A DNA stretch of 36,849 nt. Source: a virus. Taxonomy: Duplodnaviria; Heunggongvirae; Uroviricota; Caudoviricetes. Where the stretch lies: the IMG/VR virus record IMGVR_UViG_2663763326_000006; one strand, 5' to 3'. A program made the position numbers and the translations under genes. Shown one piece after another: positions 11,517 to 31,258 of the stretch; the first letter of the stretch is position 1; the number at the start of each line of letters is the position of its first letter. The notes below the pieces were generated by a model, which saw only the letters and a list, made by a program, of their open reading frames with translations, was not told the DNA's origin and did no database searches.

Positions 11517-11526
11517 CTTTAAAATC
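11517..11526 (+). promoter_or_regulatory. CTTTAAAATC motif, candidate late-promoter element upstream of lysis operon
   Basis: One of four near-identical 10-mers 31-56 bp upstream of late operon starts; flanked by GCGC. Confidence 0.35.
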
Positions 11527-11576
11527 CTTCGCGCCCTGTATTTGTGATGCTGTCTCCACCAGATAAGGAGACACAC

Positions 11577-11927
11577 ATGAAAAACCTGAAAAAATTCATT
11601 CCCCCTGTTAAAAAACCTCGCCTCAGCGGCTGGCTGCTGACCTCAGTGCTGTTGCTGGGCACCATCGCTCTGGTCTCACCACAGCAGCTGCCTGTTGTGA
11701 TCTACAAGCTGGCACTCATCACGCTGGCAGCAGTGCTGGGTTACTGGCTTGACCGTTCGCTCTTCCCCAAAGCCCGTCCCGGTCAGTACCTGAAACATGA
11801 CGACAGGCTGATGGCTGAAGGGCGTTTCCCGGTACAGACCGGCCTTCACCTGGTGTTTTCTGCTGCGTTAATCCGCCGTGCACTGATTGTTGCAGCGGTC
11901 TGCCTGGCTGTTGCGATGGGGCTTTAA
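11577..11927 (+). CDS. putative holin, three TM segments (about 116 aa)
   Basis: AAGGAG RBS 7 nt upstream of ATG at 11577; three hydrophobic helices; immediately precedes endolysin. Confidence 0.5.
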   Translation: MKNLKKFIPPVKKPRLSGWLLTSVLLLGTIALVSPQQLPVVIYKLALITLAAVLGYWLDRSLFPKARPGQYLKHDDRLMAEGRFPVQTGLHLVFSAALIRRALIVAAVCLAVAMGL

Positions 11928-11929
11928 TC

Positions 11930-12670
11930 ATGAACTGGCCGCAGATCACCTGGATTGTATGCATGTCCCTGAAACTGGCTTTCGAAGCCTTTCGGGTCTT
12001 CATCAGAACCGAACGCCTGTCAGTCCGCGCCGGGACCTTTCTGGTTCATATGGCATGGGTATTCTTTGTCGCAATGTTGCTCTGGTGTGGCGGCTTTTTC
12101 AGCCAGGCATGCGCAGCACAACCTCCGCAGGCTGCGCTGCAGTATCGCGATGATGTGATCCGTAATGCCCGGCTTGAATGGGGACTGTCTGCGCCGGTGG
12201 CCGATTTCGCCGCGCAACTGCATCAGGAAAGCGGCTGGCGACCTGATGCGATCTCGCCGGCTGGCGCTCAGGGACTGGCGCAGTTCATGCCTGCCACTGC
12301 CGACTGGATAAGCCAGTTGATACCGATGCTGAGCAGTCGTGAGCCGTTTAATCCGGCATGGGCTATCCGGGCGCTGGTCAGCTATGACCGCTGGCTGTGG
12401 CAGCGTGTCAGCGCCGCCAGTGACTGCGAGCGTATGGCCATGACACTGTCGGGCTATAACGGTGGTCTGGGCTGGGTACAACGGGACAGGCGGCTTGCAT
12501 CACAGAAAGGTCTGGACAGCACCCGCTGGTTCGGACATGTCGCCACGGTGAATGCCGGACGCAATGCGGCCAGCTGGCGGGAGAACCGCCATTATCCGCA
12601 GCGCATCCTGCGCGAACTGGCACCGCGATATCTCACATGGGGAGGCAGCAGTTGTGTGGCATCTGGTTAA
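11930..12670 (+). CDS. endolysin, SLT-domain lytic transglycosylase with N-terminal hydrophobic extension
   Basis: SLT catalytic region QLHQESGWRPDAISPAGAQGLAQFMP; N-terminal hydrophobic stretch MAWVFFVAMLLWCGGFF. Confidence 0.75.
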   Translation: MNWPQITWIVCMSLKLAFEAFRVFIRTERLSVRAGTFLVHMAWVFFVAMLLWCGGFFSQACAAQPPQAALQYRDDVIRNARLEWGLSAPVADFAAQLHQESGWRPDAISPAGAQGLAQFMPATADWISQLIPMLSSREPFNPAWAIRALVSYDRWLWQRVSAASDCERMAMTLSGYNGGLGWVQRDRRLASQKGLDSTRWFGHVATVNAGRNAASWRENRHYPQRILRELAPRYLTWGGSSCVASG

Positions 12671-13304
12671 AAAGCTGCCGTGGCGCGGCATTCTGCTGGC
12701 CATTCTTATCAATGCCTTTCTGGTCGGCCTGTATGCCATGGGATACAGAAGTGGTCATGACTCTGCAAAGCGTGACGGTGATACCGCGCTAAGTCAGTTG
12801 CAGTCAGCATTTGACGCGTACAAAACGGAGCAGGCAACGCTTGAGAATGCTGCGCTGCGGGCCTGGGCCAGACGGTATCAGGAGCAGGTGGCCGCCGGGC
12901 AGCGGGCTGAAGCCGGTTATCTTGAGCAGATTGCTCAACTGGAGAGCCGGAACAAACAACTACAGGGGCAAATTAACGATGTCACACAGCGCTGGATTGA
13001 TGAAAAAGGTAAGAGTCATCCCATTGAGTGCGTGTTTACTCGCGGTTTCGTGCGCCAGTACAACGCCGCACTCGGATATGACAACGCATCCGTCGACACC
13101 GGTCATTCAGACTCAGTTGCCGCCACTGGCACCCGCTCTGGCACAGCGACCGGGCAACCTGAAACCACTGACACCCGGTTACGCGATTCGGGTGTCTCCC
13201 AGCGTGACGTTCTCGCCAACATCATCGACAACGCATGGCAATGTCGTCGCTGGCGGAACCAGATAAACGCGCTGCTGGATGAACGGGAAGGATTACAGAA
13301 ATGA
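12654..13304 (+). CDS. Rz-like i-spanin (about 216 aa)
   Basis: GTG start with GGAGG RBS 8 nt upstream; N-terminal TM ILLAILINAFLVGLY then coiled-coil periplasmic domain. Confidence 0.55.
   Translation: MWHLVKKLPWRGILLAILINAFLVGLYAMGYRSGHDSAKRDGDTALSQLQSAFDAYKTEQATLENAALRAWARRYQEQVAAGQRAEAGYLEQIAQLESRNKQLQGQINDVTQRWIDEKGKSHPIECVFTRGFVRQYNAALGYDNASVDTGHSDSVAATGTRSGTATGQPETTDTRLRDSGVSQRDVLANIIDNAWQCRRWRNQINALLDEREGLQK
13000..13266 (+). CDS. Rz1-like o-spanin embedded in +1 frame of the i-spanin gene (88 aa)
   Basis: MKKVRVIPLSACLLAVSC lipoprotein-type signal then proline-rich mature part, wholly inside the Rz-like gene. Confidence 0.5.
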   Translation: MKKVRVIPLSACLLAVSCASTTPHSDMTTHPSTPVIQTQLPPLAPALAQRPGNLKPLTPGYAIRVSPSVTFSPTSSTTHGNVVAGGTR

Positions 13305-13627
13305 CACTGCAGGTTGAATTCTGGACGGTGGTGAGTTTTCTGCTCACCTTCATGAGGTTTGTGGGAGGGCTCGCCAAATGGTTGTTCAGTAAAACAGAAG
13401 AACGCCAGGCGGCACGATTCGCCTCCCTTGAACAGGCCCTGCAACAATCCGCCTCCAACTGGGGCGAGCTGGAAAAAGAATTTATGCGATTTAAAGCGGA
13501 TTTACCGCTGAATTATGTCCGTCGAGAGGATTATATCCGTGGCCAGACAGTCATTGAGGCCAAACTGGACGCGCTTTATAACAAACTGGAAGTGGTACAG
13601 CAGTACCGCAATACCGGAGGTCAATAA
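13301..13627 (+). CDS. membrane-anchored phage protein (108 aa)
   Basis: N-terminal TM followed by coiled-coil; start overlaps spanin stop. Confidence 0.45.
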   Translation: MTLQVEFWTVVSFLLTFMRFVGGLAKWLFSKTEERQAARFASLEQALQQSASNWGELEKEFMRFKADLPLNYVRREDYIRGQTVIEAKLDALYNKLEVVQQYRNTGGQ

Positions 13628-13938
13628 TGGTCGATATTACCCGGGTACGCCGCGAATCCCTGCGCTGGAGTCTGCTGGTTGCCCTGAACAAGACCCGCCC
13701 TTACACCGCCAGCGAGACGCTGCTGCTGGATGTGTCCCGTGCCATCTACCCGGACACCACACCGCTGGAACTGCGCCGCGAACTGGATTATCTGGCTGAC
13801 CGTAAAATGGTTGAGCTGGAGAAAAAACCTTCTGGCGACTGGTTTGCTGACCTGACCCGCCTCGGCGTAGACCTGGTGGAATACACCGTGGAATGTGGTC
13901 CGGGTATTGCCCGCCCGGAAAAGTACTGGAGTGAATAA
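13627..13938 (+). CDS. hypothetical phage protein preceding terminase genes (103 aa)
   Basis: ATGA overlap coupling with neighbours. Confidence 0.45.
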   Translation: MVDITRVRRESLRWSLLVALNKTRPYTASETLLLDVSRAIYPDTTPLELRRELDYLADRKMVELEKKPSGDWFADLTRLGVDLVEYTVECGPGIARPEKYWSE

Positions 13939-14483
13939 TGGCCAGACGCAGCACAATAGAAAAGCTGCCGGAAGACGTGCGCCGCTGGCTTGAACGGGCG
14001 CTGACTGAATCCGGCTTCAGCGGGTATAACGAGCTGGAGTCACTGTTGCGTGAGCGGGGGTACGTCATCAGCAAATCCGCTATCCATCGCTATGGACAGA
14101 AGATTGAGCGCCGCTATGGTGCTATCCGTGCGGCAACAGAAGCGGCCCGCATGCTGACCGAAGGCGCAGCAGACGATCAGGATGCGCGTTCGGAGGCTGT
14201 GATAGCCCTTATTCAGACCGAGCTGTTCGAGAGTATTGTCCAGTTGCAGGAGGCGGAAGAAGGCGAAGTCGATCCTAAAGAACGCGTGGCCCTGCTGTCG
14301 AAGGTGGCGAAGAATGTGGCTACGCTGTCCCGCGCGTCCGTCAACCTCAAAAAGTTCCAGTCTGAAGTACGGGCCAGAGCGCAGCAGGCAGCCAGCAACG
14401 CCGAGAAAATTGCCCGTAAGGGGGGACTGTCAAGCGACGCAGTACAGGCGCTTCGTCGCGAGATTCTGGGGATTGCCACATGA
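13938..14483 (+). CDS. terminase small subunit-like protein (Mu gp27 family, 181 aa)
   Basis: Immediately upstream of, and overlapping, the large terminase; N-terminal HTH-like RRSTIEKLPEDVRRWLERAL. Confidence 0.55.
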   Translation: MARRSTIEKLPEDVRRWLERALTESGFSGYNELESLLRERGYVISKSAIHRYGQKIERRYGAIRAATEAARMLTEGAADDQDARSEAVIALIQTELFESIVQLQEAEEGEVDPKERVALLSKVAKNVATLSRASVNLKKFQSEVRARAQQAASNAEKIARKGGLSSDAVQALRREILGIAT

Positions 14484-16075
14484 CAAAATCATCCGGAGTG
14501 ATTTTAAACGCCGCTGGCGGCGGCCCCGAAGGGATGAGTCCCATGGACGGGAGGAATAACCTTGCTCCCGTTTTGCCTGATACCTCGGCGCTGGATGCCC
14601 CTCCCGTTCTGTTGCCTTACCAGCAGCGCTGGGTGGCAGACACCTCTCCGCTTAAGGTGATAGAAAAGAGCCGTCGTACCGGTATTACATGGGCTGAGGC
14701 ATCCGATAACGTACTGACCGCCGCCTCTTCTGCGCCAGCAGGCGGGATGAATGTGTATTACATCGCTTATAACCAGGACATGACCGTCGAATACATTCAG
14801 GCGTGTGCGATGTGGGCACGGGCATTCAACTATGCGGCCAGTGAAATTGAAGAAGGATTCTGGGAAGAGGACGACGACGACAAACACATCAAGACTTACA
14901 CCATCAAATTTCCTGACTCCGGCTTTCGTATTGTTGCGCTCTCCAGCCGCCCGTCTAACCTGCGTGGCCGTCAGGGTATTATTGTTATCGACGAAGCGGC
15001 GTTCCATGAGCAACTGGACGAACTGCTGAAAGCGGCGCTGGCGATGCTTATCTGGGGGGGAAAGGTACGCGTTATCTCCACCCATGACGGTGACGACAAT
15101 CCGTTCAATACGCTTATCGGGGATATCCGTGCCGGACGTCAGGGAGGCAGCATACATCGCATCACTTTCCGGGAAGCCGTATCTGAGGGGCTGTTCCGGC
15201 GCGTCTGTCTGCGCACCGGGAAGGAATGGTCGGAGGCATCCGAGCAGGCCTGGATGGCATCGGTGTACAAATTCTACGGTGCCGGCGCATCCGAAGAGCT
15301 TGACTGTATTCCGGCCAACGGTGGCGGTGCCTGGCTGTCCCGTGCCCTGATAGAGTCCCGCATGTCCGCTGATACGCCGGTATTGCGTCTGACCTGCAAG
15401 GAAGGTTATGAACTGCTGTCTGATGAGGTTCGCTTCCGCGAGACGCAGGACTGGCTTGATGAGTATCTGAAACCATTGCTGGAGGCACTCCCCACTGATG
15501 CCCGCTCTTTCCTGGGGCGCGACTTTGGCCGTAGCGGTGATTTGTCGGTGGACTATCCCCTGCTGCAGGAGAAGAACCTGGTACGACGCGTGCCATTCGT
15601 ACTGGAGCTGCGTAACGTGCCGTTCAGACAGCAGGAGCAAATCACCTGGTATCTGATGGATGGCCTGCCCGGTCTGCTGGGTGCAGCGTTTGATGCCCGT
15701 GGTAATGGTGCCTATCTGGCTGAATACGCCATGCAGCGCTACGGCTCCGGCCGGGTTCAGCAGGTGATGCCAACCGAAGGCTGGTACCGGGAGCATATGC
15801 CTCCGGTCAAAGCTGCACTGGAAGACGGCAACCTGGTGGACTTACCAAAGGATGAAGACACACTGGATGACCTGCGGGCCGTTCAGGTGGTGAACGGTGT
15901 CCCCCGCGTACCGGAGCAACGCTCAAAAGCAAAGGCTGACGGTGGTAAACGCCACGGGGATTCAGCCATCGCACTGGCGCTGGCGTATTTCGCCAGCCGT
16001 GAAATTAACAAAGGGCCGGTGAAGGCAAGCTCACGCCGTCGTCGTCAGGCGGCCCGTATGCTGGAGGGATTCTGA
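14480..16075 (+). CDS. terminase large subunit (Mu gp28-like, 531 aa)
   Basis: Size, ATPase N-terminal region with acidic Walker-B-like IIVIDEAAF, synteny with portal. Confidence 0.85.
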   Translation: MTKSSGVILNAAGGGPEGMSPMDGRNNLAPVLPDTSALDAPPVLLPYQQRWVADTSPLKVIEKSRRTGITWAEASDNVLTAASSAPAGGMNVYYIAYNQDMTVEYIQACAMWARAFNYAASEIEEGFWEEDDDDKHIKTYTIKFPDSGFRIVALSSRPSNLRGRQGIIVIDEAAFHEQLDELLKAALAMLIWGGKVRVISTHDGDDNPFNTLIGDIRAGRQGGSIHRITFREAVSEGLFRRVCLRTGKEWSEASEQAWMASVYKFYGAGASEELDCIPANGGGAWLSRALIESRMSADTPVLRLTCKEGYELLSDEVRFRETQDWLDEYLKPLLEALPTDARSFLGRDFGRSGDLSVDYPLLQEKNLVRRVPFVLELRNVPFRQQEQITWYLMDGLPGLLGAAFDARGNGAYLAEYAMQRYGSGRVQQVMPTEGWYREHMPPVKAALEDGNLVDLPKDEDTLDDLRAVQVVNGVPRVPEQRSKAKADGGKRHGDSAIALALAYFASREINKGPVKASSRRRRQAARMLEGF

Positions 16076-18373: not shown

Positions 18374-18375
18374 CA

Positions 18376-18834
18376 ATGGCTTCCGATAACCTGGTCAGTA
18401 TCACCATTAACGATAAGTCCCTGCGCCGGAGCCTCCGTGCGCTGGATCTTGCTGCCACAGACCTGGAGCCCGCGATGCGCAAAATCGCCGGAACCCTGCT
18501 GGCGGAAACACAGTTTAACTTTCTTGATGAGGGGCGTCCGGGGTGGATGCCCTCGCTGGCAGCGGAAGAACGTGACGGGCAGACACTGCAGGATACCGGG
18601 CGTCTGATGGGGTCAGTATCAACCGACCATGACGACCGGCAGGCTGTTGTGGGGACCAACGTTGTTTACGGTGCCATTCACCAGTTCGGGGGTAAAACGG
18701 GGCGTAATGAGTCTGTTGAACTTCCGGCCCGCCCGTTCCTGCCGGTGACGGGGGATGGAGAACTACAGCCTGAAGTGGTAATCCCCATCCTCGATACCAT
18801 TGTCCGCCATCTTGAATCAGCGGCCCGTCGCTGA
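18376..18834 (+). CDS. virion morphogenesis protein (Mu G-like, 152 aa)
   Basis: Size and position after F-like gene. Confidence 0.65.
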   Translation: MASDNLVSITINDKSLRRSLRALDLAATDLEPAMRKIAGTLLAETQFNFLDEGRPGWMPSLAAEERDGQTLQDTGRLMGSVSTDHDDRQAVVGTNVVYGAIHQFGGKTGRNESVELPARPFLPVTGDGELQPEVVIPILDTIVRHLESAARR

Positions 18835-18880: not shown

Positions 18881-18920
18881 GGCTGTATTACCTTTATAAA
18901 GGCTTTACAGCCTCTGTTTT
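18881..18920 (+). terminator. hairpin (GGCTGTA ... TACAGCC enclosing palindrome CCTTTATAAAGG) followed by TCTGTTTTAT
   Basis: Located in the 214-bp non-coding gap after the G-like gene. Confidence 0.45.
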
Positions 18921-18983
18921 ATAACCGCCTCCGGTTCACCGCATTGCTTTCCCTGTCCTTCTCCCCTGATGTTTTCTAAAGCA

Positions 18984-18993
18984 GATTAAAATC
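18984..18993 (+). promoter_or_regulatory. GATTAAAATC motif, candidate late-promoter element upstream of protease/scaffold gene
   Basis: 56 bp upstream of ATG 19049; followed by GC-rich CGCCGGGCC like the other three copies. Confidence 0.35.
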
Positions 18994-19048
18994 GCCGGGC
19001 CTGCATTTCTCACAAACTGTCTCCGACAACATAACGCGGGACAGCAAA

Positions 19049-20164
19049 ATGTCAGCCATTCACATTTTTAAAGCCGGTACTCATACCGATATGCACGGCA
19101 AAAAACTGCCGTTCACGCCAGACGATCTTGCCGCCTGCGTGAAAGCCTATGACCCGTCCGTCCATGAAGCACCACTCGTGATTGGTCATCCCAGAACGGA
19201 AGACCCGGCGTGGGGCTGGGTGAAAGCCCTGTCGCTCAGCGGCGTCGATCTGATGGCAGAGCCTGCCCAGCTGGACCCGCAGTTTGCTGAGATGGTCACC
19301 GACGGACGATTCAAAAAAGTGTCCGCCTCTTTCTACCTCCCGGATTCACCGTCCAATCCGAAGCCCGGCGTGCTCTACCTTCGCCATGTGGGCTTTCTCG
19401 GGGCACAGCCACCTTCCGTCAAGGGGCTGAAACAGGTGTCCTTCAGTGAGCAGGAAGAAGGTGTGGTGGAGTTCGCCGACTGGCAGGCCATCACGAATGC
19501 CTCCCTGTGGGGAAAGCTGCGCGATTTTCTGATCGCCCGCTTCAGTCTGGACGAGGCAGAAAAAGTCCTGCCGGAATGGCAGCTCAACAGTCTGCGCGAA
19601 GAGGCGTACCGCGACACACTGTCGCAGGATGCAGCAGGTGCACAATTCAGTGAGACAGGCCCGGGGCCGTCTTCCGCAAGTAACGAGGAATCATCGATGA
19701 CAAAAGAAGAGATTGAAGCCCTTCAGGAGGAGAACCGCCGCCTGAAGCAGCAGGCTGCTGATCGCGATGCGCGTGATGCACAGGTCAGACAGGAGCAACT
19801 GCATAAGGACAATGTGGCCTTTGCAGAAAAACTGGTCGCAGAGGGCCGTCTGGCTCCCCGCGCCTCCTCCGTGGTGGTTGCCCTGCTGGATGCCGTCGCC
19901 GGTGGCGACAAGCCGGTGGAGTTTGCTGAGGGGGAAAGCCGCACACCGCTGGCCACCGCCTTTCGTTCATTGCTCTCCGACGGGGAGCCGGTGATGAATT
20001 TCGCCGAACAGGCCACAAAAGAGCGTGTCGGCGACACGGTGAAGGTGGATGTGGCAGAGTTTGCGGAAGCCGATCCTGAGCGTCTGGCCCTGCATCAGAA
20101 AGCAGTGGCCCTGTCCAAAAAAGAAGGCATCAGCTATGAGGCTGCTGTCGCACGCTGCCTGTAA
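19049..20164 (+). CDS. head protease/scaffold protein (Mu I-like, 371 aa)
   Basis: Position immediately before major head subunit; acidic coiled-coil C-terminal half typical of scaffold domains. Confidence 0.7.
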   Translation: MSAIHIFKAGTHTDMHGKKLPFTPDDLAACVKAYDPSVHEAPLVIGHPRTEDPAWGWVKALSLSGVDLMAEPAQLDPQFAEMVTDGRFKKVSASFYLPDSPSNPKPGVLYLRHVGFLGAQPPSVKGLKQVSFSEQEEGVVEFADWQAITNASLWGKLRDFLIARFSLDEAEKVLPEWQLNSLREEAYRDTLSQDAAGAQFSETGPGPSSASNEESSMTKEEIEALQEENRRLKQQAADRDARDAQVRQEQLHKDNVAFAEKLVAEGRLAPRASSVVVALLDAVAGGDKPVEFAEGESRTPLATAFRSLLSDGEPVMNFAEQATKERVGDTVKVDVAEFAEADPERLALHQKAVALSKKEGISYEAAVARCL

Positions 20165-21141: not shown

Positions 21142-21927
21142 ATGGGAACCACTCAGCAGGTCATTCTGATCACAACCGTAACGGCAGGGGCAGCACTGGC
21201 ACAGCAGCGTTTTGTCGGGGCAGATAATACCCCCTGTAAAGCCGGTGCCGCAGCGCTCGGGGTTGCCGAAGTGGATGCTGTTACCGGCGACAGCACGCCG
21301 GTGAGCGTTCTGGGCATTATTGCTGTCGAGGCCGGGGCCGCTGTCAGCCGTGGTGTGGCTGTTCAGTCAGATGCTCAGGCCAGAGCCGTGCCGCAGTCCG
21401 GCGACGGTAAATCCTGTGGTATTGCACTTGATGAAGCCGGGGTGAAGGCGACGTCATTCGTATCCTGCGCGGGGTGTGACATGTACTGCACCCTGGAGGA
21501 TTTGCTTGCGCAGGTGCCGGAGCGGACGCTTATCGAGCTCACCAGTGAAGAGATGGACTTCGACTCACCTGCAACAGTGAATACCCGTGTGGTGGACAGC
21601 TGTATCCGCTATGCCGACGAGCTGATTGATGCCCATCTGCGCGGACGCTATATCCTGCCACTGGCAGAGATACCGACTGTTCTGCGGGACATTGCCATCA
21701 CGCTGGTCCGTTACCGGCTCTACGCCCGCCGCCCGGAAGGTGACCTCCCGGATACGGTGAAGGATGACCACAAAGAAGCGCTGCGGCAACTCAGGGAGTT
21801 ACGTGATAACAGGCTCACGCTGGGGCTGCCGTCCACTCAGAAAGATGTGCCTGAGCCTGGCGAGTTTCGTGTACGCAGTCGCCCGGCCACTTTCGGCGGT
21901 CGTGACGGTTTACTGGAGAAATACTGA
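21142..21927 (+). CDS. two-domain head-associated protein: DUF2190-like N-terminus fused in frame to Mu gp36-like C-terminus
   Basis: Gly/Ala/Val-rich N-terminal 112 aa; internal MYCTLEDLLAQVPERTLIELT resembles the usual start of gp36 (DUF1320) proteins. Confidence 0.5.
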   Translation: MGTTQQVILITTVTAGAALAQQRFVGADNTPCKAGAAALGVAEVDAVTGDSTPVSVLGIIAVEAGAAVSRGVAVQSDAQARAVPQSGDGKSCGIALDEAGVKATSFVSCAGCDMYCTLEDLLAQVPERTLIELTSEEMDFDSPATVNTRVVDSCIRYADELIDAHLRGRYILPLAEIPTVLRDIAITLVRYRLYARRPEGDLPDTVKDDHKEALRQLRELRDNRLTLGLPSTQKDVPEPGEFRVRSRPATFGGRDGLLEKY

Positions 21928-22642: not shown

Positions 22643-24059
22643 CTATCTGCATGGTCCCGAAACCATTGAGGTGGAAAACGGTGCCCGCCCGGTTAAAACG
22701 GTGAAATCTGCCGTTATTGGCCTGATTGGTACCGCCCCGATGGGGGATGTCAATACGCTGGTACAGTGCCTGTCTGAGAAAGACGCAGCGGCATTTGGCA
22801 GCCAGTTCACCGGCTTTACCATTCCGCAGGCGCTGGATGCGATTTATGACCATGGTGCAGGCACCGTTCTGGTCATTAACGTCCTCGACCCGGCGAAACA
22901 TAAAACGGCGATCGAGGATGAGGTGGTTACCTTTGACAAATCGACAGGGCAGGCCAGACTGGCGCATCCGGTTGTCGCTAATGTGGTGGTGAAAAACAGT
23001 GAAGGCAGCACCACCCACACGGCGAACACGGACTACCGTGTTGATGCGCAGGCGGGTGTGCTCACGAACCTGGGCAAGGCTATTGAGGCCGGTGGCAGCG
23101 TGAAGGTGAGCTATGAGTACGCGGACCCGTCGAAGGTGACTGCGGCGGACATCATCGGCGGGGTGAACAGCGCCGGAAACCGAACCGGCATGAAGCTGCT
23201 TAACGACAGCTTCAACCTGTACGGCTATTTCGCCAAAATTCTGATTGCGCCGGTGTTCTGCACCCAGAAGAGTGTCGCAGTTGAGCTTATCGCCATGGCA
23301 GAGAAGCTGGGCGCGGTAACCTACATTGATGCGCCTGTCGGTACCACCTTTGCACAGGCTCTGGCAGGTCGTGGCCCGGAAGGCACCATCAACTTCAATA
23401 CCAGCTCCGACCGCGTCCGTCTGTGCTATCCGCATGTGAAGGTATATGACCCGGTGACAAACACAGAGCGTCTGGAGCCGCTCAGCCAGCGTGCAGCAGG
23501 TCTGCGTGCCAGAGTCGATCTGGACAAGGGCTACTGGTGGTCATCCTCCAATCAGGAGATTCTGGGGATCACCGGCGTGGAGCGCCAGCTGTCCGCGATG
23601 ATTGATGACCCGCAGAGTGAGGTGAACCTGCTTAACGAACAGGGGATCACCACGGTATTCAGCAGTTACGGCAGCGGCCTTCGTCTGTGGGGTAACCGGA
23701 CGGCAGCATGGCCAACGGTCACCCATATGCGTAACTTTGAGAACGTTCGCCGCACCGGTGATGTGATCAACGAGTCCATTCGTTATTTCAGCCAGCAGTA
23801 CATCGACATGCCGATTACTCAGGCGCTGATTGATGCACTGACGGAGTCGGTCAACGCCTACGGTCGCAAAATGACTGGTGATGGTGCGGTACTGGGCTTC
23901 CGTTGCTGGTTTGATCCGGCCCGCAATCCGGAGACGGAGCTGGCCGCCGGGCACCTGTTGCTGAGCTACAAATATACGCCACCACCGCCGCTGGAGCGAC
24001 TGACGTTTGAGACTGAGATCACCTCGGAATACCTGTTAACCCTGAAAGGGGGCAACTGA
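22632..24059 (+). CDS. contractile tail sheath protein (475 aa)
   Basis: Size and position directly before the tube gene. Confidence 0.85.
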   Translation: MAANYLHGPETIEVENGARPVKTVKSAVIGLIGTAPMGDVNTLVQCLSEKDAAAFGSQFTGFTIPQALDAIYDHGAGTVLVINVLDPAKHKTAIEDEVVTFDKSTGQARLAHPVVANVVVKNSEGSTTHTANTDYRVDAQAGVLTNLGKAIEAGGSVKVSYEYADPSKVTAADIIGGVNSAGNRTGMKLLNDSFNLYGYFAKILIAPVFCTQKSVAVELIAMAEKLGAVTYIDAPVGTTFAQALAGRGPEGTINFNTSSDRVRLCYPHVKVYDPVTNTERLEPLSQRAAGLRARVDLDKGYWWSSSNQEILGITGVERQLSAMIDDPQSEVNLLNEQGITTVFSSYGSGLRLWGNRTAAWPTVTHMRNFENVRRTGDVINESIRYFSQQYIDMPITQALIDALTESVNAYGRKMTGDGAVLGFRCWFDPARNPETELAAGHLLLSYKYTPPPPLERLTFETEITSEYLLTLKGGN

Positions 24060-24580
24060 TGTCAAAGATTGAGATAAACCGCATCACGAATGCCAACATC
24101 TATCTGGATGGTACTAACCTGCTGGGACGGGCTGAGGAAGTTAAACTCCCCGATGTCTCCATGATTATGCAGGAACACAAGGCGCTGGGGATGGTGGGTA
24201 AGGTGGAACTCCCGGCTGGTTTTGACAAACTGGAAGGCGAAATCAAATGGAACAGCTTTTACCGCGATGCGATGCTGTCTGCCGCGAACCCGTACAGGTC
24301 GCTGGCACTGCAGTGTCGTTCCAGCGTCCAGCGCTACAGCTCGCAGGGGCTGATTGACGAAATCCCGCTGGTCACCTTCCTGACGATTATGTTCAAGAAG
24401 AACCCGCTGGGGACGTTCAAACAGCACGAGAACGCCGAGTTCTCCAGTAGCTTCACCTGCACGTATATCAGACAGGTACTGGATGGTGAAGAGCTGCTGC
24501 AACTGGACTATCTGGCCAACATCTTCCGGGTCGGCGGTGTTGATCAACTGACTGACTACCGTATCAATATCGGGGGCTGA
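24059..24580 (+). CDS. tail tube protein (173 aa)
   Basis: Size and ATGA overlap with sheath gene. Confidence 0.8.
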   Translation: MSKIEINRITNANIYLDGTNLLGRAEEVKLPDVSMIMQEHKALGMVGKVELPAGFDKLEGEIKWNSFYRDAMLSAANPYRSLALQCRSSVQRYSSQGLIDEIPLVTFLTIMFKKNPLGTFKQHENAEFSSSFTCTYIRQVLDGEELLQLDYLANIFRVGGVDQLTDYRINIGG

Positions 24581-24582
24581 CG

Positions 24583-24864
24583 GTGAGTGTTGAACTGACG
24601 GATAAAGGAGGACGATGTGCGGCACTGGGCATGTCAAATGGTACGTGGTTTACCCTCCTTGATATTCCGGGGGTGGAAACCCTTTTTAATACCCGTAAAA
24701 CCAATGACCCGATTGACTGCACACGTTCAAAGGCCCGCAAACTGGCGGATTTGATTGAAGCATGGGAGCCTCCCGACCACTGGTTCTCCGGCATCGGCAA
24801 ATCTGAGGGAAAGACGCTTCTCATCGCTTTCCTGCGTAACTGCAAGGGGTTTCGCACTTGCTGA
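24583..24864 (+). CDS. hypothetical protein after tail tube (93 aa, GTG start)
   Basis: ORF ends just before a terminator hairpin; no recognisable motif. Confidence 0.35.
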   Translation: MSVELTDKGGRCAALGMSNGTWFTLLDIPGVETLFNTRKTNDPIDCTRSKARKLADLIEAWEPPDHWFSGIGKSEGKTLLIAFLRNCKGFRTC

Positions 24865-24871
24865 CATCACA

Positions 24872-24895
24872 GGGGCTCCGGCCCCTTCTTCTTAA
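24872..24895 (+). terminator. rho-independent terminator GGGGC-TCCG-GCCCC followed by T-rich tract
   Basis: GC stem-loop followed by TTCTTCTT. Confidence 0.5.
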
Positions 24896-24899
24896 TCTC

Positions 24900-24909
24900 C
24901 TTTAATATC
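24900..24909 (+). promoter_or_regulatory. CTTTAATATC motif, candidate late-promoter element upstream of chaperone and tape-measure genes
   Basis: 53 bp upstream of ATG 24962, immediately after the terminator. Confidence 0.35.
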
Positions 24910-24961
24910 CGTCACGCGCTTCTCCCGACATACTGCCCTGAACTTACACAGGAGCACAATC

Positions 24962-25297
24962 ATGTCACAGACCCCATCCGATACTTTTAAATTGTCTTAT
25001 CCCTTCACCACTGCTGCAGGCACCAGAATTGAGCTGGTTGAACTGAAACGCCTGACGGTAAAAGACCTGAAGCAGGTGCGCAAAATCAGCAAAAACCCGG
25101 CAGACTGGGACGAACCGCTGATTGCCCGCAGTACTGGTCTTCTCCCGGAGGATCTCGACAATATGGATCTGGCTGATTACCTGCAGTTACAGAAACGATT
25201 TCAGCTCATCACGGGGATGGGTGAGAGCAACCAGGGCGCTGACGCAGGCGCAGGGGCTGCTGGCGAGATGGTTCCGGTTTCAGCCGGGGGAGATTGA
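24962..25297 (+). CDS. tail assembly chaperone (P2 gpE-like, 111 aa)
   Basis: Small acidic protein between tube and tape-measure genes; overlapping ORF in +1 frame encodes an acidic extension. Confidence 0.65.
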   Translation: MSQTPSDTFKLSYPFTTAAGTRIELVELKRLTVKDLKQVRKISKNPADWDEPLIARSTGLLPEDLDNMDLADYLQLQKRFQLITGMGESNQGADAGAGAAGEMVPVSAGGD

Positions 25298-25379
25298 TGC
25301 CCTCGATACTGACGATCTGGAGATGTGGCTGGAGCAGGCTGAAGAGCAAATCAAAAGCGAGTACGGCGACAAATCATAG
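25287..25379 (+). CDS. frameshift extension of the tail assembly chaperone (E-prime-like)
   Basis: +1 frame reads EIDALDTDDLEMWLEQAEEQIKSEYGDKS from a GGGGG run three codons before the chaperone stop. Confidence 0.4.
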   Translation, partial: GEIDALDTDDLEMWLEQAEEQIKSEYGDKS

Positions 25380-25454
25380 TACAGACAGCCGCCAGTAGCG
25401 GCTGTTCTGCGTTATCCCCTCACGTCTTTTCACCTTCCCCGGAGGTTAACCACT

Positions 25455-28405
25455 ATGTCGGGACAGTTTTCAGTCGGCGTTGTTATCGGCGGGATGATTG
25501 GCAGCACATTCCGTTCTGCAATGAGCGGTACCCGCCGTGCGCTTGATTCCCTGAGCGATACCTCACGCCGCCTGCAGGAACGTCAGAACGCTTTAACCCG
25601 TGCAACAGAACGTTATGGTCAACTGGGTTCTTCCCGGATGCAGCATCTCAACAGCGAGCTGCTGCGGGTAAGCCGCACCATGGAGCAAATTGAGCGCCAG
25701 CAGCGCCGTCTGTCAGCGGCATCCGCTACCAGTGATGCGCTGAAAGCTAACCGCATGGCGCTGTATGGTCAGGGGATTGAAGCGTATGGCATGGCACAGA
25801 CTGTTTATCATACGGTTTCCCCTGCCGTTCAGCAGTCCATGTCTTTTCAGGACAAAATGATTGATATGTCGATCACCGCAAAATATGACAATAAAACGCG
25901 GGATGCACTTGCCGGACAGATAAAAGGCTGGGCGCTTAAATACAATCAGTATCAGGATGAGCTGCAGGAGGCGATGGGTTCACTCATCAGCGACAATATT
26001 GATAATGTGTCAGATATCGGTTTTCTGATGCCGGATATTGCCCGCGCGGCAACGGCAACACGCACGTCTGCTCAGGACTGGGCAAAAGTGGCCGCAGTCT
26101 GGCAAAACTCCCTGAAAGGCGCGGCCAGAGATTTTGGTGCCGTTCAGAATATTATGGCTTATGCCGGTGACCAGGGGTCATTTGAAATCCCGGATCAGGT
26201 CAAGTGGATGCAGTCCCTGGCCCCAATGATGGCGGGTATTGCCAGTGGAAAAGAGGCTGTTGCTGAAATCGGGGCCAGTCTCCAGATAGCAAAAATCGGT
26301 GCAGGTTCCACCGACGAAGCAGCCAATAATTTTAAAAACTTTCTTACCAAAATTTTTGCCCGCGATACTCAGAAACAGTTTGCTGATCTGGGTATTGATT
26401 TGCAGGGATCTATTGCGAGTTATAAAGCTGCGGGGATCTCTCCGATTGAAGGGATGTTGAGTGTTATAGAACGTTACCTCAATGCCAAAAGCCCCGAAGC
26501 GCTGGCCGGCTTCAAATCAGCCATGAAAATAAAGAATGATACGGCAAGAGATGAGGCACTTCAGGCTCTGGCGAAAAACTTTGGTCTGGGCGATATGTTC
26601 GCGGATATGCAGGTCATGGCATTTATCCGCCCGATGCTGGCCAACATGGACAGATATCGAGAGATCCGTGCCGGTGCTCTCAGGGCTGCGGATAACGATT
26701 TGCTTGCCAGTGCTTATGATCAGCGGCTGAAATCTCCCCTTGAAGCCACTAAAACACTTATGGTCAGCAGTCGCGATCTGGCAATTACGCTGGGCGATCA
26801 ATTAGCTCCATCTTTTATTTCTCTGACTCAGGACTTGCTCCCACTCATTCAGGGGACAAAACACTGGGTGGCGACTCACCCGCAATTTGTCAGTGGGGCT
26901 TTTAAGCTCATCAGTGCGCTCCTTGCGATTAAGATAGCGACTGTTGGTCTCAAACTGGGGCTGAATCTCCTTATTTCCCCCTTTGTGAACGTCTGGAAAA
27001 CTGCTGTTTTACTCCGGACCAACTGGCATCGACTGACTACCGCACTCGGAGAAGGTGGCAAATTACGCTGGCTTGTCACTGGATTCAGCCGACTGACCAG
27101 CGGAGGACTGAAACTCAGCAAAGTTCTGGCGGGCAGCCTCGTTCGCGGTTTTATGAGCGCTGCACGTGCCGTTCTCTGGATTGGGCGAGCGCTGATGATG
27201 AATCCCATCGGTCTCGTTATCACCGCTGTCGCGGCAGCAGCTTACCTTATCTACCGCAACTGGGGGCAGTCAGTGGCTGGTTTAAACAGCGCTGGGCTGA
27301 CATTCAGGAAGCCTTTAACGGCGGTATCGCGGGAACTGGTAAGCTGCTGATTAACTGGTCGCCGGCAGGCCTGCTCTATAAAGCCTTTGCGGCTGCGCTG
27401 AAATATTTCGGCGTTACTCTGCCGGCAAAGTTCACCGACTTCGGTGGCCATCTTATCGACGGTTTGATTAACGGTATCAAAAACAAATGGGGGTCGCTCA
27501 AATCCAGTGTAACCGGAATGGGTGACAGCATCAGTAGCTGGTTTAAACAATGCTGGGCTGACATTCAGGAAGCCTTTAACGGCGGTATCGCGGGAACTGG
27601 TAAGCTGCTGATTAACTGGTCGCCGGCAGGTCTGCTCTATAAAGCCTTTGCAGCTGCGCTGAAATATCTTGGTGTTGATCTGCCGGCAAAGTTTACCGAC
27701 TTCGGTGGCCATCTTGTCGATGGTCTGATTAACGGTATCAAAAACAAATGGGAGTCGCTCAAATCCAGTGTAACCGGAATGGGCGACAGCATCAGTGGCT
27801 GGTTCAGCGAAAAGCTGGGCATTCATTCGCCGAGCCGCGTGTTTATGGGCTTTGGTGACAATATCGCGCAGGGGGCCGCCATTGGCCTGCAGCGGACCAC
27901 TCCGCTTGCAGCTCTGGCCGGGCAGCGAATGGCCAGTGAACTGCTCCCCAGAATGCCCGTGAGCATTCAGGGGCCAGAAATACGGGATAACACTTCAGGT
28001 GTTCGCTTCAGTATGCCGTTGCCCGATATCAATGGGTTTATGTCGTCTGCTAAAAATGCGATCGGAGCCGTAATCAATAGTTTGTCTTCCATGCCCGCTA
28101 TTCCGCTCTCCACCCGGGCATCGATTTTACCAGGGCAACGTCTGGCAAATGAGATGACACCGGATGTTCCCCGTATCCCCTCGCCTGAAATCCTGGCTGC
28201 CGGATATTCAGGCCGTGGTGCAGCTGCAACCGGCGGTGGAACGTCTGGTGGTATCCAGGTCAGCTTTAATCCTCAGTTTTTCCTCAATGGCAGGGAAACC
28301 ACAGCGCCTGCAGGACTGACTGGTGCCCTGAATATGAGTCTGCATGAGCTGGAAAAAATGCTGGAGCGTCTGCTGGCTCAGAAACAACGTAAGGAGTACC
28401 GCTGA
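25455..28405 (+). pseudogene. tail tape-measure gene split by a frame break (25455-27350 frame 0; continues in frame 2 to 28405)
   Basis: Frame 0 ends in a junk tail at 27350; frame 2 continues as a credible product from about 27267; break coincides with GGGGG at 27262-27266. Confidence 0.7.
27276..27797 (+). repeat. tandem direct duplication, 2 x 261 bp (87 codons), inside the tape-measure gene
   Basis: Two near-identical units (GCTGGTTTAAACA ... GACAGCATCAGT) differing at a handful of positions. Confidence 0.85.
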
Positions 28406-29289
28406 TGTTTGCCGTACTGGGTGATATTGAGTTTGAGCTGATTACCTACTGGGACGGCTTCGAGGCCACGTTCGGCGTCGATTATGCGGAGCATGCCCGC
28501 ATCGGGGGTAAGCCTGGTCTGCAGTTCGTCGGCGACAGGCTGGACGAAATCCAGATAACTCTGGTTTTCCATCAGCATTATTGTGTACCCGATGTGGAGC
28601 TGGCGAGACTGCGAACAGCCATGAAAGCCCATCAGGCACTGGCGCTGGTCTTCGGCAACGGTGACTATCGCGGCTGGTTCGTGATCACCGATGTGACTGC
28701 AACCAGCGAGCAGACTGACAGTACCGGCAACGTGCTGGCTGTCAGTGCCACCGTGTCTCTCCGGGAATACACCGGTGACCCGAAAAATCCTCTGCAACCA
28801 CCGGCAATACGCACGAAGCTCCCGGGTGTCGGGGCGGTCTCCGGTGCCATACCTTCACCTTCAGGGGTGGCGCAGTTCATCCGCAACGGCGTCAACTATG
28901 CGAAACAGGCGCAGTCTGTACTCCAGACCACTATCAGCGCCGTTCGGGTGACACAGAAAATGAAGGATAACCCCGTTGTCGCACTGACCCGTGTGCCGGG
29001 GCTGATGAGCGGACTGGGTAATATCTCCGGGGCTCTGGGGAAAAGTGTTCCGGCGTTTAACGCACTCTCTGAATCCATGCCCGATGCCATCAGTCTGGCC
29101 AGAACAGCCAGCGAAGCAGCCACGTATGTACAGCAGGCACAGTCTGCGCTGAGTGGTGTGGACAAAAGAAATATTGCAGGTGCTCTGGATACCGTTTCCG
29201 GGCAGCTTAACGCCGTCGGCACAGCATTCAACCGCATGTCTCCGGGATTAAGTGCAATGGCCGCCAGAATACTGACGAGGAGTGTGTGA
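28405..29289 (+). CDS. tail protein with P2 gpU-like N-terminal domain and C-terminal extension (294 aa)
   Basis: Position after tape measure in P2 gene order; start overlaps tape-measure stop. Confidence 0.45.
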   Translation: MFAVLGDIEFELITYWDGFEATFGVDYAEHARIGGKPGLQFVGDRLDEIQITLVFHQHYCVPDVELARLRTAMKAHQALALVFGNGDYRGWFVITDVTATSEQTDSTGNVLAVSATVSLREYTGDPKNPLQPPAIRTKLPGVGAVSGAIPSPSGVAQFIRNGVNYAKQAQSVLQTTISAVRVTQKMKDNPVVALTRVPGLMSGLGNISGALGKSVPAFNALSESMPDAISLARTASEAATYVQQAQSALSGVDKRNIAGALDTVSGQLNAVGTAFNRMSPGLSAMAARILTRSV

Positions 29290-29501
29290 TGTTTCTTGAA
29301 CATGTTACCCGTGACGGAGAGCGCTGGGATTCGCTGGCATGGCAGTACTACGGTGACCCGCTGGGCTATCCCCGGATTATTGCCGCCAATCCGCACGTGG
29401 CCATCACGCCGGTGCTGCCCTCCGGGCTGTTGTTACTGATCCCGGTGATTGAGGCTGAAGAAGCCCGTACAGAAGAGGATATTGCCCCATGGCTGAGATA
29501 A
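29286..29501 (+). CDS. tail protein X-like (71 aa)
   Basis: Pattern WDSLAWQYYGDPLGYPRIIAANPHVA resembles P2 gpX; precedes gpD-like gene. Confidence 0.6.
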   Translation: MMFLEHVTRDGERWDSLAWQYYGDPLGYPRIIAANPHVAITPVLPSGLLLLIPVIEAEEARTEEDIAPWLR

Positions 29502-30622
29502 ACAGCACTGCGCAAGTCACATCAGCGTTAACCGGCGTCAGCGATGTGCTGACACCGGTGTTCACTCTGTGGTATCTGCAGAAAAACATCACCTCTGATA
29601 TCGCGCCTTATGTCACCCGTGTGACCTGGAGCGATAACATCAAAAATGAGTCCGATACCATTGAGGTGGAGCTGGACGACACCGATGGCCGCTGGCTGGA
29701 TAAATGGTATCCGGGCAAGGGTGACACGCTGACGCTGAAAATGGGCTATCAGGGCGAGAAGCTGCTGTCCTGCGGTACGTTCTCTATAGACGAGATCGAA
29801 GTGAGTTCGCCCGCTTCCGTTGTTTCTATCCGTGGGGTGGCCACCTCGGTTAACAGTGCCCTGCGGACTAAAACCAGTCGTGGTTTTGAGAACACCACGC
29901 TGGCAGCTGTTGCGGGGCGGATTGCCAGAAAGCACCGGCTGAAACTGGTGGGCAGCATTGAGTCCATCAGAATCGACCGGGTGACCCAGTATGCTGAAAC
30001 CGACGTGGGTTTTCTGCGCCGGCTGGCCAGCGAGTATGGTTATGCAGTGAAAGTGGTCAGTGACCAGCTGATTTTTTCTCATCTGGCCACACTGCGCAGT
30101 CAGGAGCCGGTCAGGCAGTTAAAACCGCAGGATGTGGCCCGCTTTTCCCTGCGTGACACCATCAACCGGGTCTATAAATCTGCAAAGGTAAAACACCAGA
30201 AAAGCAGCAGTAAAAAACTGATCGTCTACGAAGCTGATGGTGGTACCCGTGAAAGCGACAAAAAGCTCAAAGGTGGTAAGGTTACCAGCGCTGACTCACT
30301 TAAAGTTAACAGCCGCGTCAGCGACCCGGACAGTGCCCGGATTAAAGCGGATTCAGCACTGGCCAGACATAACGAATACCAGCAGAACGGCTCCCTGACG
30401 CTGACGGGAACACCTCAACTGACAGCAGGCAACAAAATTGAACTGGTGAGTTTTGGGCAGTTATCCGGGCCATGGCTCATAACCACTGCCCGCCATGCGT
30501 TTGACCGTAACAGCGGCTACACCACAGAGCTGGAAGTGGCACGGGGCCAGTCACAAGAGGGAAAAAACAAAAAACTCAGAAACTCACGGTTTATCACCCG
30601 GATGGCAGTACATCGACGGTGA
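29489..30622 (+). CDS. tail protein D (P2 gpD / Mu P-like, 377 aa)
   Basis: Size and synteny between X-like and V-like genes. Confidence 0.75.
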   Translation: MAEINSTAQVTSALTGVSDVLTPVFTLWYLQKNITSDIAPYVTRVTWSDNIKNESDTIEVELDDTDGRWLDKWYPGKGDTLTLKMGYQGEKLLSCGTFSIDEIEVSSPASVVSIRGVATSVNSALRTKTSRGFENTTLAAVAGRIARKHRLKLVGSIESIRIDRVTQYAETDVGFLRRLASEYGYAVKVVSDQLIFSHLATLRSQEPVRQLKPQDVARFSLRDTINRVYKSAKVKHQKSSSKKLIVYEADGGTRESDKKLKGGKVTSADSLKVNSRVSDPDSARIKADSALARHNEYQQNGSLTLTGTPQLTAGNKIELVSFGQLSGPWLITTARHAFDRNSGYTTELEVARGQSQEGKNKKLRNSRFITRMAVHRR

Positions 30623-30638
30623 TTAAGGAGAAGAAAAA

Positions 30639-31235
30639 ATGACTGGTGTCACTCGTCAGGTCGGTACGGTCAGTGCCGTTGATGCCGACAGGGTTCAGGC
30701 CCGCGTTCGTCTGCCTGAATGCGATAACCTGCGCACAAACTGGCTTAACGTGCTGCAGCGCAATACCCAGGATAACAAAGATTACTGGCTCCCTGACGTG
30801 GGGGAGCAGGTTGAGGTGCTGCTCGATGCCAACGGCGAGGATGGTGTTATTCTGGGCGCGGTGTATTCAGACGTCGATAAACCACCGTTCAGTGACAAAA
30901 ATATCCGGGGAACCCGGTTTGCTGATGGTGCAGAGTACAGCTACAACCGGAAGACGCACACTCTGATCATCCGGGGCGGCATTGAGCATATTGTCATTGA
31001 GTGTGGTGCTGATGTGGTATTGAAAACACAGAAAGCCACGATTGACGCACCGGAAACCGAACTTACCGGAGATCTGCGTGTCAGGGGTAAGCTGATTTAC
31101 GAAGGAGGCATGGCGGGTTCTGGTGGTGAAGGTGTTACCGCGACCATCCATGGCAATATCGAGATTAAAGGGAATGTCCATGCCACGGGCAGTATGTTGT
31201 CTGATGGCGAAAACTCCAGCCACCACTCCCACTGA
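30639..31235 (+). CDS. baseplate spike/assembly protein V (198 aa)
   Basis: Size, Gly-rich C-terminus, histidine-rich end; precedes W and J. Confidence 0.75.
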   Translation: MTGVTRQVGTVSAVDADRVQARVRLPECDNLRTNWLNVLQRNTQDNKDYWLPDVGEQVEVLLDANGEDGVILGAVYSDVDKPPFSDKNIRGTRFADGAEYSYNRKTHTLIIRGGIEHIVIECGADVVLKTQKATIDAPETELTGDLRVRGKLIYEGGMAGSGGEGVTATIHGNIEIKGNVHATGSMLSDGENSSHHSH

Positions 31236-31248
31236 GCTTTTTAAACGC

Positions 31249-31258
31249 CTTTAATATC
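31249..31258 (+). promoter_or_regulatory. CTTTAATATC motif, candidate late-promoter element upstream of baseplate W
   Basis: 31 bp upstream of ATG 31289; followed by GGGGCA-ATAC-TGCCCC hairpin abutting the start codon. Confidence 0.3.

Follow-up and report, generated by a model that had tools for sequence, protein, structure and literature searches.

Five predicted Mor-type late promoters and a proposed two-tier late cascade in a BcepMu-type prophage of Escherichia coli

The virus record IMGVR_UViG_2663763326_000006 is a stretch of 36,849 nucleotides (nt; hereafter the window, i.e., the whole DNA analysed), and it is a transposable (Mu-like) prophage of E. coli, of the BcepMu type in its gene order. 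Over positions 1-34327 it shows 99.96% identity to the prophage lying between ycaL and aroA in strain 4/1-1 (copy L001), and a 10-kb piece of the prophage is matched in about 642 of 5426 complete E. coli genomes. Its late genes run rightward, beginning with the holin at 11577, and a gene of the Mor family of transcriptional activators lies at its left end. Five sites, here called S1 to S5, carry a 16-bp imperfect dyad followed at a fixed distance by a -10-like hexamer; S1 precedes the holin, S2 the head protease, S3 the tail chaperone, S4 the baseplate W gene and S5 a DNA methylase gene. It is likely that these sites are late promoters activated through the dyad by the single Mor protein, in a two-tier cascade that dispenses with the C activator of phage Mu. 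The sites and the genes named here are located as follows.

10070..10121, minus strand: S5 promoter, upstream of the Dam-type methylase open reading frame (ORF); dyad CCTAAACCACATTAAC at 10121-10106 and hexamer CATCAT at 10083-10078, both on the minus strand; predicted +1 at 10071/10070
11508..11559, plus strand: S1 promoter, ahead of the genes for holin and lysis; dyad CTTAACGCGCTTTAAA spanning 11508-11523, 10-mer at 11517-11526, TGn and, at 11546-11551, hexamer GATGCT; +1 predicted at 11558/11559; ATG of the holin gene at 11577
18975..19026, plus strand: S2 promoter, before the head protease/scaffold gene (equivalent of Mu I and BcepMu gp32); dyad TCTAAAGCAGATTAAA at 18975-18990, hexamer CAAACT at 19013-19018; predicted +1 at about 19025/19026; ATG at 19049
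24891..24942, plus strand: S3 promoter, ahead of the genes for the tail assembly chaperone and the tape measure; dyad CTTAATCTCCTTTAAT spanning 24891-24906, hexamer CATACT at 24929-24934; predicted +1 at about 24941/24942; ATG at 24962
31240..31290, plus strand: S4 promoter, ahead of the baseplate W gene; dyad TTTAAACGCCTTTAAT spanning 31240-31255, hexamer AATACT at 31278-31283; ATG at 31289, its A being the predicted +1
9169-10023, minus strand: Dam-type methylase ORF (Pfam MethyltransfD12)
1..390, minus strand: gene of the Mor-family activator, 129 residues, last gene of the leftward early operon

The starting point was an initial annotation of the window, which had reported four near-identical copies of a 10-mer, CTTTAAWATC, lying 31-56 bp upstream of late gene starts. 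Three copies are exact (11517, 24900 and 31249, all on the plus strand), against 0.06 expected and with none of 100 shuffles reaching three; the fourth, GATTAAAATC at 18984, carries two mismatches, as had been stated. The gaps from the end of the motif to the ATG measure 50, 55, 52 and 30 nt at sites 11517, 18984, 24900 and 31249, respectively, in keeping with the distances given. The gene identities assigned there also hold, since Pfam recognizes the holin (Holin_2-3), the tail chaperone (Phage_TAC_7) and baseplate W (GPW_gp25), and the head protease/scaffold gene, which has no Pfam match, is 51% identical to BcepMu gp32. An extended pattern, TAA-N6-TTAAWATC-N23-CTG, has exactly four matches over both strands, all of them intergenic and on the plus strand.

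Three features had been overlooked, namely the upstream half-site of the dyad, the -10 hexamer at its fixed distance, and the fifth site; all four late operons first proposed are retained, and the count rises to five with the addition of S5 on the minus strand. CTTTAAWATC is the promoter-proximal half of the 16-bp imperfect dyad, whose consensus is TTTAAAGCGCTTTAAA and whose invariant core, TAA-N6-TTA, is common to all five sites and to the Mor-dependent promoter Pm of Mu. The hexamer, of the form nAnnnT with A2 and T6 invariant, begins 19 nt past the 10-mer, i.e., 30.5 nt from the dyad centre. S5, situated between a 71-residue ORF ending at 10124 and the methylase ORF, reads TAAACCACATTAACAGA, then 19 nt, then CATCAT; in its KP12 orthologue (a Klebsiella phage, see below) the dyad is kept and the hexamer is one nt more distant. 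The hexamers match the -10 consensus at 3-4 of 6 positions, and no -35 hexamer is present, the best match to TTGACA being at most 3 of 6 at any spacer of 15-19 nt; a canonical sigma-70 scan called no promoter at the sites scanned, S5 and S1-S3. The G+C-rich stretch that had been noticed after the motif is the -35 region directly 3' of the dyad, and in Mu the bases directly 3' of the dyad are also required for activation (PMC2582627).

The Mu promoter Pm provides the register in which these sites can be read. At Pm, Mor binds a dyad spanning -51 to -36 and centred at -43.5, upstream of a -10 hexamer and with no -35 hexamer (PMC4287176). The Pm sequence is TAAAGCCGGTTAAT, then N, then TATCCT, and its dyad, AGTAAAGCCGGTTAAT, carries the TAA-N6-TTA core. 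When the published bottom-strand T positions reactive to potassium permanganate (-12, -4, -1, +1, +3, +4) are laid on this sequence, every one falls opposite a top-strand A only when +1 is set at position 9224 of NC_000929, which places the dyad centre 30.5 nt before the hexamer, the same distance as in the window, where centring at -43.5 uses predicted start sites. Because they share both the core and this spacing, the window sites are Pm-like (Mor-type) and not C-type; their half-sites are extended relative to Pm, with TTTAA followed by ATC or AGC. The initial annotation had proposed activator-dependent late promoters like those controlled by C in Mu; the activator dependence it envisaged is borne out by the anatomy of the sites, their conservation and their link with the Mor clade (see below), but the likeness is to the Mor site of Pm and not to C sites.

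The five sites also emerge from an independent scan, made with a 52-nt weight matrix whose training set was 22 protease-upstream sites, all of other genomes. Its five highest matches in the window are S5 (33.8; 32.5 if rescored with a both-strand background), S1 (32.4), S2 (31.7), S3 (25.9) and, at a borderline value, S4 (16.3), the S5 match spanning 10076-10127 on the minus strand. The maxima of 200 Markov shuffles averaged 7.3 (standard deviation 3.0; highest 17.5). All five matches fall inside the 4.9% of the prophage that is non-coding. The sixth-best match (10.9) is the S1 palindrome read in reverse. Use of the S1 dyad as a divergent promoter in the window is unlikely, the reverse reading having this score and no A2/T6 hexamer. 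In KP12-like phages the reversed S1 palindrome scores about 19-20 and has a correctly spaced -10-like CAGAAT, with no gene start nearby (24015-24066, plus strand, in locus L002; near 2511-2525, minus strand, in L012, L015 and L017), and there the reverse reading may be a divergent promoter sharing one dyad.

Terminator-like structures lie between the rightward units.

18817-18834 and 18900-18913, plus strand: terminator-like hairpins with T-runs, at the end of the S1 operon and upstream of S2
24871-24886, plus strand: terminator-like hairpin and T-run closing the S2 operon; top entry of the list of terminator-like structures

These hairpins separate the first three rightward units, and two of the motif copies (18984 and 24900) lie just 3' of them, as the initial annotation had it. 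The T-run of the hairpin at 24871-24886 extends into the left half-site of S3.

The candidate activator is encoded at the end of the early operon, whose other features are given here.

Leftward early operon, minus strand: genes for Ner-like and IclR-like regulators, transposase A, a B-like ATPase, Gam and GemA, with the Mor-family gene last
362-811, minus strand: GemA-family gene, overlapping the start of mor
5020-6789, minus strand: transposase A, in the early operon
8696-9052, plus strand: repressor-like gene

The ORF at 1-390 matches Pfam Mor (PF08765) with 147.8 bits against a cut-off of 24.9 (E 1.3e-43), its residues 9-116 aligning with positions 1-107 of the 107-position model, i.e., over its full length, and it matches the Protein Data Bank structures 9l0x (C; E 3.5e-9) and 1rr7 (Mor; E 3.8e-9). 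In an alignment with Mu Mor and Mu C, residues G53, G54, Y58, P60 and Y98 are invariant, comprising the GG..Y.P of the beta-strand linker and the helix-turn-helix (HTH) tyrosine. Mutation of Y75 or Y115 of Mu C nearly abolishes its activity, and P77 contacts DNA in the C-TAC structure, according to a cryo-electron microscopy study of the Mor and C activation complexes (bioRxiv 10.1101/2025.05.02.651988); the window counterparts of Y75, Y115 and P77 are Y58, Y98 and P60, all conserved. The recognition-helix region, ELARKFGVSLQWVY, is conserved among phages sharing the TTTAAA-type dyad and differs in Mu Mor and Mu C. A second Mor/C gene was sought in the window by tblastn with seven family members and none was found; a paralogue equivalent to C is accordingly rejected, no match appearing at E up to 10. 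The earlier view that 1-390, on the minus strand, is the only Mor/C-family gene therefore stands.

Comparison with other Mu-like phages shows that the element follows the late genes and not the surrounding DNA. It precedes the same four genes (lysis, protease, tail chaperone and W) in KP12, BcepMu, phiE255, YO107_2 and AFS-2018a, in flanking DNA that has diverged. The Mor proteins of these phages are identical to that of the window at 92% (Klebsiella KP12), 54% (BcepMu and phiE255), 57% (Ralstonia YO107_2) and 46% (Pasteurella AFS-2018a) of positions. Matrix scores of at least 15 occur at all four boundaries in KP12, YO107_2 and AFS-2018a and at three of the four in BcepMu and phiE255, whose W site is sub-threshold, and these five phages hold no other matrix match save one reversed S1 palindrome in KP12. 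In AFS-2018a three of the four sites are the perfect 16-bp palindrome TTTAAAGCGCTTTAAA. The same phage (locus L006) also has a dyad-like ATTAAAATGCGCTTTAGATC at about 7880-7900. It stands some 18 nt 5' of the start codon of ORF12, which follows mor; the usual geometry would need a wider gap.

A wider survey covered 80 loci around protease homologues from GTDB genomes, the DNA of which was scanned with a score of at least 15 taken as a match. The element lies 5' of the protease gene in Enterobacterales, Burkholderia, Neisseriaceae, Pasteurellaceae and a few others, so that S2 has orthologous sites in many of these loci; it was not found there in the distant alpha- and deltaproteobacterial relatives. 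Matches on the late-gene strand number 120, against 7 on the opposite strand, five of which are the reversed S1 palindrome. Besides the position 5' of the protease, they recur at an upstream spot, which in annotated phages corresponds to the lysis genes, and about 5.7 kb downstream, which corresponds there to the tail chaperone. In Neisseria Mu-like prophages (L036, L040-L042, L062, L078 and L079; about 9440-9770) mor lies directly upstream of the protease promoter, and a terminator-like hairpin with a U-run, past the -10 hexamer, immediately adjoins the protease ATG.

Pseudomonas phage JBD25 (L089), whose Mor is 41% identical to that of the window, has no match to the matrix. It carries a repeated, shifted variant of its own, TTTTcGC-N3-TTCCAAAAGAC, located 5' of its Mu I gene, 5' of its tape-measure gene and before its lysis region (positions 13325, 21700-21790 and 27242), and at the Mu I site a hexamer follows after the same 19-nt gap. 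Such a lineage-specific variant hints at co-evolution of Mor proteins with their sites among Mu-like phages.

Taken as a mechanism, the proposed cascade would run as follows. During lytic growth the early operon would be transcribed to its end, allowing Mor to accumulate, and Mor would bind the 16-bp imperfect dyad centred about 43.5 bp 5' of the start at S5, S1, S2, S3 and S4. Since these promoters have no -35 hexamer and a weak -10, host sigma-70 RNA polymerase would be unable to use them alone; bound Mor would recruit it through the C-terminal domain of the alpha subunit and region 4 of sigma, by analogy with Mu Mor at Pm. Transcription from S1 would then serve the lysis, packaging and head genes; from S2, the head protease and capsid genes through the tail tube; from S3, the tail chaperone gene through baseplate V; from S4, baseplate W with the tail fibres; and from S5, the Dam-type methylase. 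The cascade would thus pass from early genes to Mor to late genes, with the C step of Mu missing.

Several considerations weigh against this account. For this phage group we infer Mor binding, the start sites, and activation and its dependence on Mor. The AT-rich half-sites could contribute as UP-like elements. S4 scores 16.3 in the window, below the highest null maximum of 17.5, and its support comes mainly from its orthologues (KP12, 19.6; Ralstonia, 22.6; Pasteurella, 26.9). That the motif occurs together with the Mor clade (matches in 14 of 14 loci with a visible Mor of this clade, i.e., at least 74 bits, and in 0 of 9 with only a weak match to a divergent Mor-like protein) is confounded by phylogeny, so that it is supportive and not phylogenetically independent, and the comparison covers loci with mor inside the fetched flanks, beyond which it lies in BcepMu-type loci. 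Finally, no late-promoter motif or mapped late promoters of BcepMu-like phages were found in the searchable literature, and a prior mention in the original description of BcepMu (PMID 15184022) is possible.

Among the alternatives, the one that fares best, improbable as it is, holds that the dyad is an operator or architectural site bound by another protein, such as the repressor, the Ner-like or IclR-like regulators, GemA, or host IHF or Fis. The window does encode further HTH proteins (8696-9052, 8414-8602 and 8053-8367) in addition to GemA, and the putative assignment of the dyad to Mor draws on sequence comparison. Binding by another regulator is nonetheless unlikely because no copy of the element occurs in the early control region (8603-8695) and because the element always stands on the late-gene strand at a fixed distance 5' of a -10 hexamer; it also matches the Mor site of Mu Pm, and it is kept where the early regulators differ, as between Pasteurella and BcepMu phages. 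Slighter still is the probability that these are ordinary, activator-independent sigma-70 promoters, in which the TTTAAA blocks would act as UP elements for the C-terminal domain of alpha. The AT-rich half-sites, at about -36 to -51, do lie partly within the UP-element zone, and S1 has the TGn of an extended -10. However, the lack of a -35 (at most 3 of 6) and the weak -10 hexamers (3-4 of 6) do not fit such promoters, and neither does the retention, across genera of very different base composition, of an exact dyad whose centre is G+C-rich and whose spacing is fixed; moreover, the sites have the very core of the Mor site footprinted at Pm, a promoter inactive without Mor, and loci with a divergent Mor gene do not have the element. 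An origin of the motif by chance, through base composition or as T-rich terminator tails is effectively refuted: S3 does overlap the T-run of a hairpin, but the 10-mer is in large excess over expectation, the matrix scores far exceed those of shuffles, S1, S4 and S5 have no terminator directly upstream, and the element is conserved across genera. Activation by Mor through the dyad therefore remains the preferred reading of the five sites.

The distance from hexamer to start codon is itself unusual at S4. The W ATG lies 5 nt past the hexamer in the window and 6 nt past it in the intact copy L001, and a leaderless W mRNA is therefore predicted. With related loci counted in, the W start codon lies 5-8 nt past the hexamer, and it has no Shine-Dalgarno sequence. 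A leaderless arrangement is also predicted for the protease gene in Burkholderia and Ralstonia phages, where the start codon lies 5-8 nt past the hexamer and again has no Shine-Dalgarno sequence; the loci flagged for it besides the window (31278-31291) are L003, L004, L006 and L031-L033.

A second regularity concerns RNA structure, inverted repeats being present at all five predicted start sites.

10038..10069, minus strand: S5 leader hairpin of 12 bp, -28.9 kcal/mol, z -5.8, beginning at about +2/+3, inside the predicted transcript
11551..11573, plus strand: S1 inverted repeat TGTCTCC / GGAGACA, -9.6 kcal/mol, z -3.3
19019..19042, plus strand: S2 leader hairpin, -7.1 kcal/mol, z -2.2; -1.8 kcal/mol when folded from the predicted +1
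24935..24955, plus strand: S3 leader hairpin, -7.7 kcal/mol, z -3.7; 0 kcal/mol from the predicted +1
31273..31288, plus strand: S4 inverted repeat GGGGGC / GCCCC(C), -11.7 kcal/mol, z -2.6, flanking the hexamer and ending at the W start codon

The repeats of S1-S3 start at or just past the last base of the hexamer and stop 4-6 nt before the start codon. At S1 the stretch from the -10 hexamer to +1 holds the 5' arm, and the 3' arm is the holin Shine-Dalgarno sequence, with -0.5 kcal/mol left when folding begins at the predicted +1; at S2 the 5' arm runs from the first nt past the hexamer and the 3' arm covers a GGGA Shine-Dalgarno-like region; at S3 the 3' arm covers the Shine-Dalgarno sequence CAGGAG. 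The S5 hairpin, in which KP12 has a compensatory stem change, is possibly a 5' stabilizer of its transcript. That role was considered for the other hairpins, as 5'-terminal stabilizers of promoter-initiated RNA, and rejected: it fits S5 only, the stems of S1-S3 starting too near the hexamer for a sigma-70 start. An Rfam search of the window at gathering thresholds returned no family, and the leader hairpins are therefore not a curated RNA.

The arrangement extends to related phages. Over 104 non-identical leader sites the mean folding energy is -9.4 kcal/mol from the end of the hexamer to the ATG and -2.3 from the predicted +1, against -4.3 and -3.0 for the respective shuffles, and the 5' arm begins at the first base past the hexamer in 80 of 103 sites. 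The median z is -2.65 for the site leaders (n=68) and 0.13 for the leaders of other genes in the same loci (n=313; Mann-Whitney p 1e-24), these sequences being unique but related. In the leaderless class (15 sites, of which the 11 distinct sequences were tested in an ungapped register anchored on the hexamer, with a permutation test) the stems, whose arms flank the hexamer, covary: 56 of 66 positions pair when both arms come from one sequence and about 29 of 66 when they come from different lineages, a result that none of 10000 permutations reached. In Neisseria and Pasteurella phages a hairpin followed by a U-run, resembling an intrinsic terminator, lies between the -10 hexamer and the ATG. 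For Mu PI, published oligonucleotides carry 20 nt downstream of the S1-mapped start (PMC4461284); the +1 deduced from their design lies 7-8 nt past CAAACT, inside the 5' arm of a hairpin of -14.7 kcal/mol (z -4.0).

It is possible, and we put it forward tentatively on the basis of predicted start sites, that Mor-type late promoters of Mu-like phages are built inside a hairpin that insulates them against read-through. Transcripts initiated at the promoter would lack the 5' arm and be translatable, and read-through RNA coming from upstream operons or host genes would fold and hide the ribosome-binding site or, in the U-run versions of Neisseria and Pasteurella phages, terminate. Such an insulator would tie translation of the leading late gene to transcription begun at that gene's own activator-dependent promoter.

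The surroundings of these features can be described more briefly. The methylase ORF has an in-frame ATG at 10023 that would make it 30 residues longer than from the start annotated in L001 (9933). Between it and the lysis genes lie three ORFs with no assigned function (10124-10339, minus; 10338-10742, plus; 10718-11446, minus), the last with a weak AAA-like match, and the stretch 10124-11446 varies among relatives (KP12, BcepMu), which gives it the look of an accessory region. The right end of the window, 34698-36849, is not phage DNA. It matches IS26 followed by the class 1 integron integrase gene intI1, and many E. coli plasmids carry this stretch with 100% identity.

35836-36849, minus strand: intI1 (Pfam Phage_integrase)

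The tail-fibre/invertase end is intact in L001 and is therefore interrupted in the window copy, which is probably defective. Relative to L001 the window also has five single-base deletions in runs of G or C (21438, 27261, 30542, 31284 and 31519). Genes fused or split by them are those for DUF2190/gp436, the tape measure (25455-27350 and 27464-28405) and D, and baseplate W is shortened to 97 residues from 115; one of the five falls within the C-run that separates the S4 hexamer from the W ATG. These deletions are probably homopolymer assembly errors, and otherwise pseudogenization.

For Mu, promoters dependent on Mor or C are textbook knowledge, and existing annotation already describes gp01 of BcepMu as a Mor/C-like late activator. 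The additions made here are modest: a two-tier cascade with Mor-type sites directly at the predicted late promoters, and hairpins straddling the predicted start sites. The DNA specificity of Mu Mor, with TAA-N6-TTA at -43.5, seems to be the form that is widespread in the family, and the C step of Mu therefore looks like an addition to a simpler two-tier cascade. The five promoters, with their binding site and predicted starts, constitute a testable late regulon that has relatives in Klebsiella, Burkholderia, Ralstonia, Neisseria and Pasteurellaceae. The sites could be used as Mor-inducible promoters, and they could help to predict the inducibility of such prophages, which carry lysis genes and, in the present case, lie beside IS26 and a class 1 integron. 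Hairpin insulation, if true, would offer transposable phages a general means to silence lethal late genes despite read-through, which would be useful to a phage that inserts randomly into transcribed host genes.

Among known systems, Mor and Pm of Mu share with the window a 16-bp imperfect dyad with the TAA-N6-TTA core, a centre at -43.5 (for the window, from predicted start sites), a hexamer at 30.5 nt and no -35. The activators are homologous (Pfam Mor, 31% identity), and mor follows gemA at the end of the early operon in the window as in Mu (Mu gemA 8233-8784, mor 8781-9170). The difference lies in deployment: Mu Mor drives one promoter, which yields C, whereas the window sites precede five units, including all the late operons, and C is missing. 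Mu Mor and C have an N-terminal extension of about 20 residues that the window Mor lacks, and Pm scores only 5.2 with the matrix built from the window clade.

The C-dependent late promoters of Mu are also several, with a -10 hexamer, no -35 and a dyad centred at -43.5 (PMC2582627). They occupy comparable positions, ahead of the lysis genes, of the head protease gene I and of a DNA-modification gene, and also within the tail and baseplate genes, and C belongs to the same protein family as the window Mor. In contrast, Plys, PI, PP and Pmom are unmatched by the clade matrix (maximum in Mu, 8.9) and their upstream sequences have no TTTAAA-type dyad; PP precedes P, the baseplate hub gene, whereas the window sites precede the tail chaperone and W; the modification gene is mom/com in Mu and a Dam-type methylase in the window; and Mu has the additional step from Mor to C. 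A Dam-type methylase under a Mor-type promoter parallels the late, activator-dependent control of mom in Mu.

The late promoters of P2, 186 and P4 are activated by the Ogr/Delta zinc-finger proteins and serve four late operons, each having a dyad upstream and a -35 that is weak; in P2 this dyad reads TGT-N12-ACA and has its centre near -55. These operons, with dyad and weak -35, recall the window, whose tail and baseplate genes are P2-like (V, W, J and I), but no Ogr-type gene is annotated in the prophage, and the P2 dyad differs in sequence and position.

The proposed insulating hairpins have a counterpart in the fold-back inhibition of IS10 and IS50, reportedly described by Davis, Simons and Kleckner in 1985 as a protection from outside transcription. 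There, as is said of IS10, the 5' arm lies upstream of the element's own start and the 3' arm over the translation start signals, so that only read-through RNA folds, which is the arrangement predicted at the late promoters. The two differ in that IS10 protects a transposase gene, whereas the present case concerns activator-dependent phage late promoters, for which the analogy draws on predicted folding, and in that the Neisseria and Pasteurella phages have versions of the hairpin resembling terminators.

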